Source of the DNA: an uncultured Thermus sp.
GTDB taxonomy: Bacteria; Deinococcota; Deinococci; Deinococcales; Thermaceae
DNA: 64,000 nt
Direction of reading: 5' to 3'
Assembly: GCA_947085095.1 (NCBI GenBank)
Contig: CAMTVD010000009.1
Location: 1 to 64,000, forward strand
Shown: positions 5,392-9,734 of the stretch, one piece after another
Layout: every line of letters begins with the position of its first letter
Numbering within the stretch: the stretch's first letter is position 1
The notes under the pieces: generated by a model
What the model saw: only the letters and a program-made list of their open reading frames with translations
What the model was told of the DNA's origin: nothing
Databases searched by the model: none
Made by a program: the position numbers and the translations under genes

Positions 5392-5780
5392 GGATGGCCC
5401 CTCTTGGCCTCGGCCTCCTGGCCACGGGGATGGCCCTGGGGACCAACCTTCTCCTCTACGCCCTGGCCTGGCTGGCGGGCGCGCCCTTCCAGGTGGCCCC
5501 TCCCGGAAGGCCCCCCGAGGAGGTGGGCCTGGCCGCCGTCGTCCTCTTCACCGCCCTGCCCATGGCCCTAGGGTTCGCCCTCTACGTGCCCCTAAGAAGG
5601 CGAAGCCCCAGGGCCTTGCCCCTCTTCGTGAGCCTGGCCCTGGCCGTCTTCCTCCTGATGCTCTTCCCCCCCTTGGCCGCCGCCTCCGATCCCCGAACAG
5701 AGCTCGGGCTCATCGCCCTGCACGTGCCCCCTGTGGCCTTTTACCTGTGGGGTCTCGCCCGGATGGAGGAAGCCCTTTGA
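5388..5780 (+). CDS. Four-TM membrane protein (DUF6069-like)
   Basis: Hydrophobic helices, LIALHV near the C-terminus; GTGA-coupled to yceI. Confidence 0.65.
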
Positions 5781-6535
5781 GGCGGCTTTTGGGGCTCACC
5801 CTAAGGGTGCGGGACCTGAAGGCCCAGCTGGCCTTCTACCAGGGCCTCCTGGGGCTTGGGGTGGAGGCCGACCCGCCCCGATACCGGCTCTTCCCTCAGG
5901 GGCGGGGCTTCTTCCTGGATCTGATCCATGACCCGGAGGCCCCCCTCCGCCCCTACCCCTCGGTGGGCCTCTATCACTTCGCCCTACTCCTGCCCCACCG
6001 CAAGGCCCTGGCCGGGGTTTCCCAGAGGCTTCTGGAGGCCGGGGCCCAGTTTGAGGGGGCCGCGGACCACGGGGTCTCGGAGGCCCTCTACTTCCGGGAT
6101 CCCGAGGGGAACGGTCTGGAGCTCTACCGGGACCGGCCCCAAGGGGCTTGGCCCCAAAGGGGCCCCCTCATGTTCACCGCCCCCCTCAACCTGGAAAAGC
6201 TCCTAGGGGAAAGCCCGGGCTCAAGCTCCCTACCCCCGGAAACCCAGCTGGGCCATATCCACCTGCATGTGGCCGACTTGGCCGAGGCCGAGACCTTCTT
6301 TTCTGGAAGACTGGGCATGGCCGTCACCCTGCGCACCTACCCCGGGGCCCTCTTTTTCGCCTGGGACGGCTACCACCACCACGCGGGGGCCAACGTCTGG
6401 ACGGGGAAGCGCCTCGCCCCCGAGGGGTCCACGGGGCTTGTGGGCTACGCCCTCGAGGCCCCGGCAGGGGTTCCCCCCGGGCTTTACCAAGACCCCACCG
6501 GGGTCCAGGTGCGGGTGGCCTCCCAAGCCCCTTGA
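5777..6535 (+). CDS. VOC-family protein (CatE-like catechol 2,3-dioxygenase/glyoxalase)
   Basis: GLYHFALLLP, DHGVSEALYFRDPEGNGLELYRD, GHIHLHV, YHHHAGANVW; TTG start at 5777 after GGAGGA. Confidence 0.85.
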   Translation: MRRLLGLTLRVRDLKAQLAFYQGLLGLGVEADPPRYRLFPQGRGFFLDLIHDPEAPLRPYPSVGLYHFALLLPHRKALAGVSQRLLEAGAQFEGAADHGVSEALYFRDPEGNGLELYRDRPQGAWPQRGPLMFTAPLNLEKLLGESPGSSSLPPETQLGHIHLHVADLAEAETFFSGRLGMAVTLRTYPGALFFAWDGYHHHAGANVWTGKRLAPEGSTGLVGYALEAPAGVPPGLYQDPTGVQVRVASQAP

Positions 6536-6561
6536 CGGCACCCTTCTCCCTGTCCTAAACT
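6532..6561 (+). promoter_or_regulatory. Promoter of the aroF-tyrA leader
   Basis: TTGACG(6532-6537)-N18-TAAACT(6556-6561). Confidence 0.65.
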
Positions 6562-6572
6562 TTGGGGCAACT

Positions 6573-6638
6573 ATGCCGACCTTTGGGTGCTACTACGGCT
6601 TTTATCCTCCCGCCGGGGGCGCCCTCGGTCTGGCATAG
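6573..6638 (+). CDS. Putative attenuator leader peptide MPTFGCYYGFYPPAGGALGLA
   Basis: 21 codons with 3 Tyr + 2 Phe among codons 4-11, directly upstream of a terminator and aroF-tyrA. Confidence 0.8.
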   Translation: MPTFGCYYGFYPPAGGALGLA

Positions 6639-6653
6639 CGGTTTTCCGCAAGA

Positions 6654-6684
6654 GGGCGCCCCCGAAAGGGGGCGCTTAGGTTTT
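6654..6684 (+). terminator. Attenuator terminator hairpin
   Basis: GCGCCCCC-GAAA-GGGGGCGC then TTAGGTTTT; the 5' arm can alternatively pair with 6614-6626 (13-bp perfect complement). Confidence 0.8.
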
Positions 6685-6695
6685 AGGAGGCGAGC

Positions 6696-7730
6696 ATGCT
6701 GATCGTGATGAAGCGGGGGTACACGGAGGCGGAGCTGGAGGAGGTCATCCAGGAGATCCGAAAGGTGGGCTACCGGCCCCATGTCTCCCAAGGGGTGGAG
6801 ACCACCCTGGTGGGGGCCATCGGCCGGGGGCCCACCCCGGAACTCATGGAGCACTTCCGGGCCCTGCCTGGGGTGGCGGAGGTCATCCCCATCTCCAAGC
6901 CTTGGAAGCTGGCCAGCCTGGACGTGCAACCCTTCCCCACGGTTTTGGAGTTTCCCACGGGGAGGACCGGGGGCGGGCACGTGATGGTGGCGGCGGGGCC
7001 TTGCGGGGTGGAAAGCCGGGAGCAGACCCTGAGGGCGGCCCGCTACGTGAAGGCCCACGGGGCCCAGATGCTCCGGGGCGGGGCCTTCAAGCCCAGGACG
7101 AGCCCTTACGCCTTCCAGGGCCTGGGGGTGGAGGGCCTGAAGATCCTGGCCGAAGCCCGGAAGGAAGCCGGCCTCCCCGTGGTCACCGAGGTCCTCTCCC
7201 CAGAGCAGGTGGAGCTGGTGGCGGAGTACGCCGACGCCCTGCAGATCGGGGCCCGGAACGCCCAGAACTTCCCCCTCCTCCAGGCGGTGGGGGAGGTGGG
7301 GAAGCCCGTAATCCTCAAGCGGGGGATGAGCATGACCCTCGAGGAGCTCCTCATGAGCGCCGAGTACGTCCTCTCCCGGGGCAACATGCGGGTCATCCTG
7401 GTGGAAAGGGGCATCCGCACCTTTGAAAGGGCCACCCGCTTCACCCTGGACGTCTCCGCCGTCCCGGTCCTCAAGAGCTGGACCCACCTCCCCGTCTGGG
7501 TGGACCCCTCCCACCCCGCGGGGAAGAGGGACTGGGTCATCCCCCTGGCCCTGGCGGGCCTGGCCGCCGGGGCGGACGGGATCATCGTGGAAACCCACCC
7601 CGAGCCGGAAAAGGCCCTCTCCGACGCCGCCCAGCAGCTCCACGAGGACGAGTTCGCCCAGCTCATGGAGAAGGTCCGCCGCCTCACGGAGGCCCTGGGC
7701 AAGACCCTGGCCACCCCCGCCTACCGATGA
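6696..7730 (+). CDS. aroF: DAHP synthase, class I-beta, with N-terminal regulatory domain
   Basis: AGPCGVES, GGAFKPRTSPYAFQG, QIGARNAQN, ERGIRTFE, VDPSH. Confidence 0.95.
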   Translation: MLIVMKRGYTEAELEEVIQEIRKVGYRPHVSQGVETTLVGAIGRGPTPELMEHFRALPGVAEVIPISKPWKLASLDVQPFPTVLEFPTGRTGGGHVMVAAGPCGVESREQTLRAARYVKAHGAQMLRGGAFKPRTSPYAFQGLGVEGLKILAEARKEAGLPVVTEVLSPEQVELVAEYADALQIGARNAQNFPLLQAVGEVGKPVILKRGMSMTLEELLMSAEYVLSRGNMRVILVERGIRTFERATRFTLDVSAVPVLKSWTHLPVWVDPSHPAGKRDWVIPLALAGLAAGADGIIVETHPEPEKALSDAAQQLHEDEFAQLMEKVRRLTEALGKTLATPAYR

Positions 7731-8806
7731 AACCCCTCCTCGCCAAAGTGGGCATCTTCGGGGTGGGGCTTCTCGGGGGAAGCGTGGCCCTGGGGCTAAG
7801 GGAGCGCTTTCTGACGGACGAGGTCCACGTTTACGACCAGGATCCCCTGGCCCTGGAGAAGGCCCTTTTCCTGGGGGTGGCGGACCGGGCCCACGCGGAG
7901 ATCGGCCCCTGGGTGAGGGACCTCTCCTTGGGCATCCTGGCCGCCCCTGTGGGGGCGCTGGCCGAGCTGGGAAGGGCTCTCGCCCCCTACGCCCATCCCG
8001 AGAGCCTCTGGACCGATGTGGGCAGCGTCAAGGGGAAGGTGGTGGAGGCCCTCGAGGGCCTCCTCCCCAACTTCCTGGGGGGCCACCCCATGGCGGGAAG
8101 CGAGCGGGCCGGAGTGGAGAACGCCCATGCGGGCCTCCTGCAAAACGCCGTCTGGGTCCTTACCCCCACGGAGCGGACCACCCCCCAAGCCCGGGAAGGA
8201 ATCCGGGGGGTGGTGGAGGCCCTGGGGGCGTATCCCCTTGAGGTCCCCCCCAGGCTCCACGACCAGCTGGTGGCCCGCATCTCCCACCTCCCCTACCTCC
8301 TGGCGGTGGCCCTGAACCGCCTGGTGGCCCGAAGCGGGGAGAGGGACCTCCTCATGTTCCTGGCGGCGGGGGGCTTCCGCGACCTCACCCGGGTGGCCTC
8401 GGGCAGCCCCCGGATGAGCCGGGACATGGTGGTGGAGAACAAGGAGGCCCTAAGGGAGGCCATAGAGGAGCTACGGGCGGTCCTCCTGGAGCTGGAAGAC
8501 CTCCTGGAGGAGCCAGAGGCCCTCCTAAGGGCAGCGGAGGAGGCCAAGAGGACCCGGGATGCCCTACCCATCGTGCGCCGCAGCCTCCTTCCCGAGATGC
8601 ACGACCTGGTAGTCCAGGTGCCGGACCGCCCCGGGGAGATCGCCAAGATCGCCACCGCCTTGGGGGAGGCCGGGGTCAACATCAAGGACATAGAGGTCCT
8701 CACCATCCGGGAAGAGGCGGGGGCCCTGAGGCTCGGCTTCGCCACCCGGGAGGAGAAGGAAAGGGCCAGGGAGGTCCTCAAGGAGGTGGGGTACCGGGTT
8801 CGCTAG
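7727..8806 (+). CDS. tyrA: Prephenate/arogenate dehydrogenase with C-terminal ACT domain
   Basis: GVGLLGGS, TDVGSVK, GGHPMAGSE, SHLP, GFRDLTRVA; ACT motif VPDRPGEIA. Confidence 0.93.
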   Translation: MKPLLAKVGIFGVGLLGGSVALGLRERFLTDEVHVYDQDPLALEKALFLGVADRAHAEIGPWVRDLSLGILAAPVGALAELGRALAPYAHPESLWTDVGSVKGKVVEALEGLLPNFLGGHPMAGSERAGVENAHAGLLQNAVWVLTPTERTTPQAREGIRGVVEALGAYPLEVPPRLHDQLVARISHLPYLLAVALNRLVARSGERDLLMFLAAGGFRDLTRVASGSPRMSRDMVVENKEALREAIEELRAVLLELEDLLEEPEALLRAAEEAKRTRDALPIVRRSLLPEMHDLVVQVPDRPGEIAKIATALGEAGVNIKDIEVLTIREEAGALRLGFATREEKERAREVLKEVGYRVR

Positions 8807-9734
8807 CCCAGGCCACCCGGTTCTTCCCCAAGGCCTTCGCCCGGTAAAGCGCCCGGTCCGCCCTGAGGAAGAGCTCCTGCAAATCCCCCCGGTAGAGGAC
8901 CACCCCAAAGCTGGCGCTGACCCCCAAGGCCGCAAGGCCTTCCCGAAGCCTCTCCGCCAGGCGCTCGGCACCAAGGGGGTCGGTGGCGGGAAGCAGAATG
9001 GCGAACTCTTCCCCGCCCCACCGGCCCACCAGGTCCCCCTGGCGCACGTGGGTCTTCAGGTATCGGGCCACCTCCTTCAGGAGGCGGTCCCCCTCCTGGT
9101 GCCCCTTCTCGTCGTTCACCCGCTTGAAGTCGTCCAGGTCCAGGAGGATGAAGGCGAAGGGTTTCTCCCCCCGCTCCACCCGGGCCGCCTCCCTTTCCAG
9201 GGCCATCTCCAGGGCCCGGCGGTTGGGGAGGCCCGTGAGGGGGCAGGTGAGGGCCTGCTCCCGCCAGAAGCGCACCTGGCCGTAAAGCTCCCGAAAGCGG
9301 GCCAAGAGGAGGGCCAGGGCCAGGAGAACGGGCTGGGAAAGGGCGTAGTGGCCATAGGGAAAGCCCGTTTCCCGGCCCGTGAGGAGGGGAAAAAGGACGA
9401 GAAGGCCACCCCAAAAGGCCCCCGCTCCTAGGGCCCAAGATAGGGGGTAGGCGAAGGCGGCAAGGAGGTAAAGGGCCGGGCTCCAGAAGCCCGCCCCCCA
9501 GTAGGCCTCCCCCAAACGCCAGGCCTCAAAGAGCAGGTAGGCCCCCAGGGCGTGGACCAGAACCCGGGGAGCCCGCTTTGGGCCCTGGAGGAAGGCCCAG
9601 AGGAAGAGGAGGCCGAAGAGGAGGTAGACGATGTAAAGGCGAGGGTCCTGAAGGGGTCGGTAAGAGAGCTGGACACCTACCCCCAGGGCCAGGCCCACCC
9701 AGGTGAGGGCATAAAGAAGGCGGGCCAGCTCCAT
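8778..9734 (-). CDS. Membrane-anchored diguanylate cyclase (GGDEF)
   Basis: N-terminal TM helices; LTGLPNRR, DLDDFKRVND, RQGD I-site, GGEEF, ADRALYRAK. Confidence 0.93.
   Translation of the reverse strand: MELARLLYALTWVGLALGVGVQLSYRPLQDPRLYIVYLLFGLLFLWAFLQGPKRAPRVLVHALGAYLLFEAWRLGEAYWGAGFWSPALYLLAAFAYPLSWALGAGAFWGGLLVLFPLLTGRETGFPYGHYALSQPVLLALALLLARFRELYGQVRFWREQALTCPLTGLPNRRALEMALEREAARVERGEKPFAFILLDLDDFKRVNDEKGHQEGDRLLKEVARYLKTHVRQGDLVGRWGGEEFAILLPATDPLGAERLAERLREGLAALGVSASFGVVLYRGDLQELFLRADRALYRAKALGKNRVAWASEPGTPPP

Follow-up and report, generated by a model that had tools for sequence, protein, structure and literature searches.

A predicted leader-peptide attenuator upstream of aroF-tyrA in Thermus and related genera

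Is the aroF-tyrA operon of Thermus, which encodes a 3-deoxy-D-arabino-heptulosonate 7-phosphate (DAHP) synthase and a prephenate dehydrogenase, controlled by a ribosome that reads a short peptide ahead of it? The question was raised by a 64,000-nucleotide stretch of DNA from an uncultured Thermus sp. (GenBank assembly GCA_947085095.1, contig CAMTVD010000009.1, positions 1 to 64,000 of the forward strand), which is referred to here as the window. An earlier note on this DNA had proposed that a short open reading frame (ORF) rich in Tyr and Phe codons, together with the competing RNA hairpins that follow it, has the layout of trp/pheA-type attenuation. The same layout was found to recur upstream of aroF in every Thermus genome examined, and also in Meiothermus and Calidithermus. 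Based on these sequences, we consider it highly likely that the element controls aroF-tyrA by classical ribosome-mediated transcription attenuation, and it very probably raises the operon when Phe or Tyr runs short. The parts expected of a leader attenuator can be recognised: an ORF directly after a promoter, a cluster of aromatic codons, a predicted intrinsic terminator and a putative antiterminator strand near the stop codon.

The leader and its alternative RNA structures in the window

The element consists of the following features, where MFE denotes the minimum free energy fold.

6532..6561, plus strand: sigma-70-type promoter read from the sequence, with TTGACG at 6532-6537, an 18-nt spacer and TAAACT at 6556-6561
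6572..6581, plus strand: 5' strand of helix 0, in the start-codon region, pairing with 6627-6637 (MFE fold)
6573..6638, plus strand: leader ORF of 21 codons plus TAG, MPTFGCYYGFYPPAGGALGLA, with the ATG at 6573 and the TAG at 6636-6638
6582..6605, plus strand: regulatory codon block, F4 (TTT), Y7 and Y8 (TAC TAC), F10 (TTT) and Y11 (TAT)
6585..6590, plus strand: segment 1, GGGTGC, codons 5-6, pairing with 6619-6624 inside segment 2 (MFE fold)
6614..6626, plus strand: segment 2, CGGGGGCGCCCTC, codons 14-18, 5' strand of the antiterminator
6627..6637, plus strand: 3' strand of helix 0, in the last codons and the stop codon (MFE fold)
6652..6664, plus strand: segment 3, GAGGGCGCCCCCG, 3' strand of the antiterminator, with 6654-6663 doubling as the terminator 5' arm
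6668..6677, plus strand: segment 4, GGGGGCGCTT, 3' arm of the terminator, preceded by the loop GAAA at 6664-6667
6676..6684, plus strand: interrupted U tract TTAGGTTTT, the first two T of which are able to form G-U pairs in the stem

The promoter described in the earlier note, TTGACG-N18-TAAACT, was present at 6532-6561 and was the sole match of a promoter scan of 5500-9500, compared to a mean of 0.2 in shuffled sequences. The leader ATG lies 11 nt 3' of the -10 hexamer and has no Shine-Dalgarno (SD) sequence; from the promoter spacing, the 5' untranslated region of the leader is probably 0-5 nt long. The ORF reads M P T F G C Y Y G F Y P P A G G A L G L A, and the five aromatic codons among codons 4-11 were read directly, as previously described. 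Aromatic codons make up 7.95% of the codons in 581 long ORFs of the genome, an estimate that is somewhat biased towards C-ending codons because these ORFs were picked by high GC3, and with this background the chance of at least five aromatic codons in eight is ~1.5e-4 by simple arithmetic. It was also true that the leader is not listed separately by the ORF finder, where its codons appear solely at the 3' end of a longer open frame of 123 codons (6267-6638) that overlaps the genuine upstream gene in a different frame.

At the RNA level, 6614-6626 is the exact 13-nt reverse complement of 6652-6664, and the claim that this second stretch doubles as the 5' arm of the terminator agreed with the MFE fold, in which 6654-6663 is part of a 10-bp hairpin. 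The hairpin, GCGCCCCC-GAAA-GGGGGCGC, occupies 6656-6675, and two G-U pairs extend its stem to 6654-6677. The fold of 6565-6700 has an energy of -65.8 kcal/mol (z = -2.05), with the 10-bp hairpin 6654-6677 in both the MFE and the centroid structure, and the duplex of segment 2 with the terminator 5' arm has an energy of -33.8 kcal/mol, which was matched by 0 of 500 shuffles. Segment 1 adjoins the aromatic codons on their 5' side, and a stalled ribosome would therefore cover it. Neither segment 1 nor helix 0 figures in the earlier note.

Elsewhere in the same genome, hairpins at gene ends often carry a spacer of 4-6 nt and then a T run (TAAGCTTTTT, TAAGGCTTTTT and TGAGGTTTTT; examples on the scanned strand are at C2:25844, C4:14581 and C22:107019). 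Spaced T tails appear to be the house style of terminators in this genome, invisible to simple scanners, and the interrupted U tract of the window resembles them.

In the mechanism that we propose, transcription would begin at, or a few bases before, the ATG at 6573, and a ribosome would load without an SD and read the 21-codon leader. With ample charged tRNA-Phe and tRNA-Tyr, the ribosome would reach the TAG at 6636 and mask segment 2 (6614-6626). Once segment 2 is masked, segments 3 and 4 would form the terminator 6654-6677, and RNA polymerase would halt at the U-rich tail ahead of aroF. When either charged tRNA is scarce, the ribosome would stall on codons 7-11 and mask segment 1 (6585-6590), leaving segment 2 free to capture segment 3 once it is made. 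No terminator would then form and the polymerase would continue into aroF-tyrA, a response that could be to Phe, to Tyr or to both. With no ribosome on the RNA, helix 0 and the 1:2 and 3:4 pairings would all form, resulting in termination. In addition, helix 0 might hide the 5' AUG after the full ORF has been transcribed, so that each leader would be translated only once.

To model a parked ribosome, a stretch of 28 nt centred on the A site region was masked in the folding. When codons 7-11 occupy the A site, the ribosome covers segment 1 and reaches no further than ~6615, leaving segment 2 free, while a ribosome at the stop codon covers ~6621-6648, that is, half of segment 2 together with helix 0. 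For the full leader of the window, the terminator formed both in the free RNA and when the ribosome was at the stop; it was lost with the ribosome on F4, Y7, Y8 or F10 at 37 °C, and on any of the five aromatic codons at 65 °C. The window therefore flips under the ribosome mask in the way that the earlier note had predicted, with stalling leading to the antiterminator and full translation to the terminator. At 65 °C, 11 of the 15 Thermus loci lost the terminator at one or more stall positions, as did 1 of 14 loci of the Meiothermus group. In transcripts cut before the 3' arm (65 °C), the mean sequestration of the 5' arm was 0.80 with a stalled ribosome and 0.48 with a ribosome at the stop.

Sequestration of the aroF SD was also considered as a contribution of this RNA. 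Pairing with the UUUUCC after the stop codon or with CCUCC at 6606-6610 occurred in some folds only and was unconserved in Thermus, and it was rejected.

Conservation across Thermus, Meiothermus and the order

A search for AroF in the genomes of individual species gave 46 loci (numbered L), and 15 Thermus-type sequences, the window included, were aligned over the whole region (alignment A1). The leader element was present in all 32 Thermus genomes searched, in 31 by a DNA match with 6556-6700 and in one by inspection. The single genome missed by the DNA match, G158 (identical in this stretch to L009), has the hairpin together with a diverged leader, MRGFGCVPLGFYFGPSGRP. All 30 Thermus loci from the DNA search have the 21-codon ORF (29 by pattern, and L073 by eye), and TTGAC[AG]-N17/18-TAnnCT was seen in all 29 Thermus loci displayed. 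No such ORF was found upstream of aroF in the non-Thermaceae loci L044 and L046. The upstream flanks are unlike between loci, while the promoter, the ORF and the hairpin stay with aroF, indicating that the element travels with aroF and not with the upstream gene.

The codon statistics rest on 25 distinct 21-codon Thermus leaders. Among these, the ATG is invariant and the stop codon, at one fixed position, is TAG in 22, TAA in two and TGA in one. G9, F10, Y11 and P13 are invariant, and position 8 is F in 23 leaders and Y in two (codons TTC, TTT and TAC), giving a core of [Y/F]8-G9-F10-Y11 in which positions 8, 10 and 11 are aromatic in every leader. Position 7 is Y in 16 of the 25 and position 12 is Y in 19; the number of aromatic codons across Thermus leaders ranges from 3 to 7. 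Codon 10 is TTT and codon 11 is TAT in 24 of 25 leaders each, and in the 581 long ORFs TTT accounts for 22.8% of Phe codons and TAT for 7.9% of Tyr codons genome-wide. Rare U-ending codons in the core would sharpen the response, and rare codons are used similarly in the E. coli leu leader. Within Thermus, variability at the three codon positions was 0.084, 0.066 and 0.098, with no wobble bias; as the three positions vary equally, coding constraint cannot be read from wobble bias within the genus. The conserved N-terminal (M-R/Q/P-T) and C-terminal (R-S/L-A) residues of the leader can be explained by helix 0.

The 14 loci of Meiothermus, Calidithermus and related bacteria have the same layout as Thermus with unrelated stem sequences (alignment A2). 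The order of parts in this group is TTGACA-N17-TAcACT, then CATATG 8-9 nt further on, then an ORF of 25-33 codons, and the promoter hexamer columns are invariant in the alignment. The leader ends in [F/Y]FGYFYWPxVPVRxA, and FGYFY is followed by W in 11 of the 14 loci and by R in three; outside the aromatic block, the peptide (25-33 residues) is unlike that of Thermus in both length and sequence. Segment 2 in this group is UCCCCGUGAGG, and the terminator is CUUCCGGGG...CCCCGGAAG-U6-7, with GCUUCCGGGG-loop-CCCCGGAAG as the canonical example. Taking both groups together, a GC hairpin with a U-rich tail was found in 29 of 29 loci. A candidate 1:2 pairing in Meiothermus, ~30 nt 5' of the aromatic codons, was spotted by eye and left uncounted.

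Pairing was compared with that of slid strands, and the observed values with those of 500 shuffles. For the Thermus terminator, 98.7% of cells were paired (40-62% when slid), four pairs had changed on both sides and the observed values were reached by 0/500 shuffles. The terminator and outer stem of the Meiothermus group gave 86.8% (31-53% slid), with 12 cells changed on both sides and 0/500 shuffles. Helix 0 was paired in 92% of cells in Thermus (22-50% slid; two cells changed on both sides; 95/500 shuffles) and in 84% in the Meiothermus group (25-40% slid; six cells; 9/500 shuffles). The antiterminator was paired in 84.7% of cells in Thermus (48-64% slid), with one cell changed on both sides, and in 82.3% in the Meiothermus group (38-70% slid), with four. 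Pairing of segment 1 with 6619-6624 (GGG[C/U]GC with GCGCCC) reached 96.7% in the 15 Thermus sequences (48-69% slid). Covariation thus backs the terminator, and weakly helix 0, and does not back the antiterminator. The expectation of the earlier note for a cross-genus alignment was borne out for the aromatic codons, which are conserved, and for the terminator, which covaries; for the antiterminator it was not, as its covariation is not significant.

The 13-bp complement between 6614-6626 and 6652-6664 is likewise exact in the window, but as a full 13 bp it is specific to it: the two outermost pairs are kept in one and three of the 15 Thermus sequences, leaving a conserved core of 11 bp. A strand complementary to the terminator 5' arm lies within the last 4-23 nt before the stop codon in 26 of the 29 loci computed. 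Relative to the stop, it spans -23 to -4 in Thermus and lies between -20 and the stop in 13 of 14 loci of the Meiothermus group; the duplex of L027 extends to +6 beyond the stop and the complementary strand of L009 straddles it. The rows for L011 and L012 were mis-set by the rule that defined the region and were not counted as failures of the element. The duplex energies beat mononucleotide shuffles with z between -1.1 and -5.1. The case for the antiterminator rests on two unrelated sequence families that each keep a copy of the terminator 3' arm in the end of the ORF.

Three further observations were made in these loci. Loci of the Meiothermus/Calidithermus group (within L013-L034) have a 6-bp outer stem around the terminator and U tract, for example CACGCA...UGCGUG (A2 columns 183-188/233-238), in which 76.5% of cells are paired and two pairs have changed on both sides. 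In a Thermaceae metagenome-assembled genome (MAG; L019:1180-1503), the leader and terminator lie 177 nt upstream of aroF, compared to the usual ~70 nt, and the insert holds an additional TTGACA. In a Meiothermus MAG (L028:67-422, minus strand), a tmRNA gene (RF00023, 182 bits) is located just upstream of the aroF leader.

Beyond these genera, a full-length AroF orthologue was found among 151 genomes of the order in the window's own family, in family f4 (71-79% identity) and in part of family f2 (58-63%). Among the matches listed, f3 and f5 had the paralogue type only (residues ~67-340), and there were 73 further matches outside those listed. The leaders of f2 and f4 were surveyed in 16 loci of the AroF search and 20 further loci, 36 together (L015-L016, L021-L025, L035-L041, L043 and L045, at about -160 to -30 relative to aroF; L047-L066, at about -310 to -70). 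Here a promoter is followed within 7-9 nt by an ATG and, ~7-17 codons later, by an SD-like GG[A/G]GGTG. Five nucleotides past this is [A/G]TG-GA[A/G/C]-GA[C/T]-GG[C/G/T]-TA[T/C], in frame with the promoter-proximal ATG. The conserved block encodes [M/V]-[E/D]-D-G-Y-[G/P/D]-(G)-Y, and the motif was present in 33 of the 36 loci. These leaders have 2-4 Tyr codons, and the conserved block is without a Phe codon. No hairpin with a U tract was seen between the leader and aroF in the f2 and f4 loci inspected. The comparison of these sequences suggests that an old Tyr-sensing leader may have become a Phe/Tyr(/Trp) terminator-type attenuator in Thermus and Meiothermus.

Weighing the attenuator against other explanations

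Several results weigh against the attenuator. Some Thermus leaders hold just three aromatic codons (L088: MRTLGCPFGFYRPGGGALRPA). The covariation score of the antiterminator was reached by 493/500 shuffles in Thermus and by 37/500 in the Meiothermus group, which is not significant, and the 1:2 pairing showed no covariation, with no changes on both sides and observed values reached by 500/500 shuffles; this can be explained by its pairs hardly varying. The stems in Thermus share the palindromic GGCGCC, and part of their mutual complementarity is therefore automatic. Under equilibrium folding, 4 of the 15 Thermus loci and 13 of the 14 loci of the Meiothermus group retained the terminator at any stall position, and in the cut transcripts the mean sequestration of the 5' arm was 0.72 without a ribosome, unlike classical super-attenuation. 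The hairpin of the window was not among the matches of a simple terminator scan and its U tract is interrupted; the scan missed it because its stem reaches into the T run through the two G-U pairs, and what is left of that run is broken up. In Thermus the ATG follows the -10 hexamer by 10-11 nt, in Meiothermus by 8-9 nt and in family f2 by 7 nt, and the 11 nt of the window are long for a truly leaderless start. RNA data came from the Logan contigs of 18 metatranscriptome runs, none of which matched half of the sequence words; four runs were compared with the locus, which gave contigs covering 6596-7027 (X1), 6385-6731 (X3) and 6596-6706 (X4), and some of them span the hairpin into aroF. Such contigs cannot show the starts, ends or strand of RNA, and DNA may be present, so they bear neither on termination nor on the start site. 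Finally, the leader of aroF in C. glutamicum is stated, in the part of PMC11802643 available to us (crediting Neshat et al. 2014), to respond to Phe and not to Tyr; therefore, sensing of both Phe and Tyr in Thermus is not assured.

As equilibrium folding keeps the terminator in many loci, a kinetic, co-transcriptional argument is needed. Attenuation is kinetic, so the failed equilibrium switch in most loci of the Meiothermus group is neither support nor counter-evidence. The switch model suits the window well, and the other loci in its kinetic form only.

Four other explanations for the element were considered. The conserved peptide itself could stall the ribosome, perhaps on free amino acid, through a nascent-chain arrest motif ([Y/F]GFY..P, with [E/D]DGYxY in the sister families), and the same RNA switch would read the stall. 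The conservation of the non-aromatic neighbours G9 and P13 in all 25 distinct Thermus leaders fits this idea, as does the f2/f4 block [V/M]-[E/D]-D-G-Y, in which the sole variable sites are wobble positions and the A/G of its start codon. The mean variability of that block at codon positions 1, 2 and 3 is 0.083, 0.0 and 0.221, a wobble pattern that reflects selection on the peptide across ~60% AroF identity. However, this pattern is absent within Thermus, where the three positions vary alike; the aromatic residues are not fixed (F or Y at position 8; Y, P or R at position 12); and G9, P13 and the residues next to them overlap RNA segments or a conserved UUUUAU stretch. A biosynthetic operon needs induction by shortage, which hungry codons explain simply, and we therefore think an arrest motif improbable. 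A larger version of the history suggested above would combine both ideas. The Thermus attenuator would belong, as a single branch, to an ancient family of aroF-tyrA leader peptides found across the order, in which a core [E/D]-D-G-Y-x-Y gave rise to F-G-Y-F-Y-W and F-G-F-Y-Y and was kept at the peptide level; sensing would have widened from Tyr to Phe and Tyr (and Trp), the read-out would have changed from one without a terminator to a classical terminator, and the non-aromatic residues would act as an arrest or sensitising motif in the ribosome, making the element something beyond a string of hungry codons. Judging from the sequences compared, this scenario is doubtful.

If the hairpin did no more than terminate or insulate transcription behind the upstream glyoxalase-family gene, the short ORF would be an untranslated by-product of conserved RNA or DNA. 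The ORF region is indeed near-invariant at all three codon positions in Thermus, and the hairpin lies 120 nt 3' of the end of that gene. This is highly improbable given that promoter, ORF and hairpin stay with aroF while the upstream sequences differ, that a promoter-like site separates the upstream gene from the hairpin, and that the ORF has a fixed length, three different stop codons at one position and F/Y swaps, with a like ORF in Meiothermus, where the stem nucleotides are unrelated. A role of the hairpin as the terminator of the glyoxalase-family gene was rejected because the flanks vary across loci. The leader RNA could instead act as a TRAP-like or riboswitch-like switch, controlled by a protein or a small molecule, with translation irrelevant; the alternative helices 0, 1:2, 2:3 and 3:4 are conserved, and as there is no Rfam match an unknown class is conceivable. 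But there is no conserved unpaired pocket and no repeated protein-binding motif, the conserved unpaired stretch coincides with the run of aromatic codons, and the start and stop codons are conserved, so that we give this explanation hardly any weight. We give as little to a functional micropeptide of 21 residues that the hairpin merely separates from aroF. Its length and much of its sequence are conserved within Thermus, yet the conserved N- and C-terminal residues fall on helices 0, 1:2 and 2:3, the Meiothermus peptide differs except in the aromatic block, and no signal or membrane-like feature was seen, by eye only.

The locus, related systems and significance

The attenuator is followed by the operon and preceded by an unrelated neighbour.

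5747-6535: glyoxalase/dioxygenase-family gene, the upstream neighbour, whose TGA (6533-6535) is within the -35 hexamer
6685..6690, plus strand: AGGAGG, the SD of aroF, ending 5 nt 5' of its ATG at 6696
6696..7730, plus strand: aroF, a class Iβ DAHP synthase with an N-terminal ferredoxin-like regulatory domain (Pfam DAHP_synth_1, 4.8e-78; DAHP_snth_FXD, 3.5e-20)
7727..8806, plus strand: tyrA, a prephenate dehydrogenase with a C-terminal ACT domain (Pfam PDH_N, PDH_C and ACT)

The tyrA start and the aroF stop share 4 nt, and tyrA follows aroF in 43 of the 46 related loci, the exceptions being L018 and the two non-Thermaceae loci. A second DAHP synthase of the same genome, outside the window (G000:C14:221683-222759), is fused to a chorismate-mutase-like N-terminus. 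Its ATG is 6 nt past a TTGACA-N17-TAAAAT promoter with no leader ORF present, and its mRNA looks leaderless. On the minus strand, a gene for a GGDEF diguanylate cyclase (8778-9734) runs towards tyrA, and its ORF shares 29 nt (8778-8806) with that of tyrA. The metatranscriptome contigs X1 and X4, which are from two different runs, both start at 6596 within the leader ORF; the shared start most likely reflects the assembly breaking where strains differ, and is not evidence of an RNA end.

Comparison with Rfam gave chance matches only, and no leader family, for 6000-7200 of the window with E up to 10. At the gathering score, no leader family was found in 12 related loci, and the single match was a tmRNA elsewhere. 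The element was not recognised by the covariance models of the Rfam amino-acid leader families (Phe, Trp, His, Leu, Thr and others). A genome scan for short ORFs followed by a hairpin and T run returned 72 rows, of which 69 were this leader or, judged by eye, the 3' ends of longer frames. The three candidates inspected (C13 WYYY, C12 WWW and C14 KK..K) were all ends of longer frames and were rejected. The scan demands a perfect 7-bp stem, so many leaders would escape it, and its result does not speak against other attenuators in this genome.

The element resembles pheL-pheA and trpL-trp of E. coli in having a short ORF with codons for the product, segments with predicted 2:3 and 3:4 pairings and a candidate 1:2 pairing, a predicted terminator right before the first structural gene and a stop codon at which a terminating ribosome would cover segment 2. 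Unlike these, the Thermus leader has no SD and its ATG is close to the -10 hexamer, making the start probably leaderless or nearly so; it mixes Phe and Tyr codons in place of a run of a single type; and the element would control a DAHP synthase together with TyrA, has an extra helix between start and stop, and matches no Rfam family. The lysine biosynthesis cluster of T. thermophilus is under leader-peptide attenuation, showing that the genus uses this mode of control, although that attenuator belongs to another amino acid and another operon.

In E. coli, the aroF-tyrA operon is described as repressor-controlled in the part of PMC11802643 available to us. A characterised counterpart is found in C. 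glutamicum, where, according to the available parts of two articles, aroF is preceded by the aroR leader with Phe-Tyr-Phe (Mentz et al. 2013, PMC4046766; PMC11802643). As far as these parts describe it, the two systems share a mixed Phe/Tyr leader before a DAHP synthase gene, with stalling that raises transcription; they differ in that C. glutamicum belongs to another phylum and its leader has the Phe-only response noted above, whereas in Thermus the element is located ahead of aroF-tyrA and contains 3-7 aromatic codons. Leaderless polycysteine short ORFs in mycobacteria are Cys-responsive attenuators, as reported in the accessible part of bioRxiv 10.1101/834739. From that part, these are alike in being mini-ORFs at the extreme 5' end of a polycistronic mRNA with an SD-free start, in which the speed of translation reports on an amino acid, and unlike in phylum, in responding to Cys, and in their read-out, which in Thermus is a predicted intrinsic terminator.

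The earlier note had left open whether this attenuator has been described. Table 7 of Song et al. 2005 (PMC1173090), which gives putative attenuators from Merino's web database, has the entry 'Thermus thermophilus ^aroAIβ > tyrA', and the term 'leader peptide' is absent from the main text of that article. The entry is almost certainly the same terminator/antiterminator pair, in the same operon and genus. The putative attenuator had therefore been listed already in 2005, and what that listing, as far as it was available, does not contain is the leader peptide. Korolev et al. 2016 (PMC4833913) count Deinococcus-Thermus leader genes, and this case is not among them in the part of the article available. 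In searches of full-text literature, which most subscription journals lie outside, no description of this leader peptide and no experiment on it was found.

By kind, the element is very probably textbook attenuation and a new member of it, as far as can be judged from the comparisons above. Its points of interest are the probably leaderless start, the extra helix between start and stop, and the apparent evolutionary change in specificity and read-out. For annotation, the 21-codon ORF and its relatives are unannotated and without an Rfam model. With ~115 nt, the element is a compact natural system in the tractable genus Thermus, for which purified RNA polymerase, ribosomes and many solved structures are available, and it would allow the coupling between a probably leaderless-initiating ribosome and RNA polymerase to be studied at high temperature. 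For the control of aromatic synthesis, it would mean that one DAHP synthase is attenuated together with TyrA, while the chorismate-mutase-fused paralogue is on a plain leaderless promoter. Across the order, the comparison offers a leader peptide that appears to have kept its place ahead of one operon while shifting in amino-acid specificity and in read-out, and it could serve as material on how attenuators evolve.

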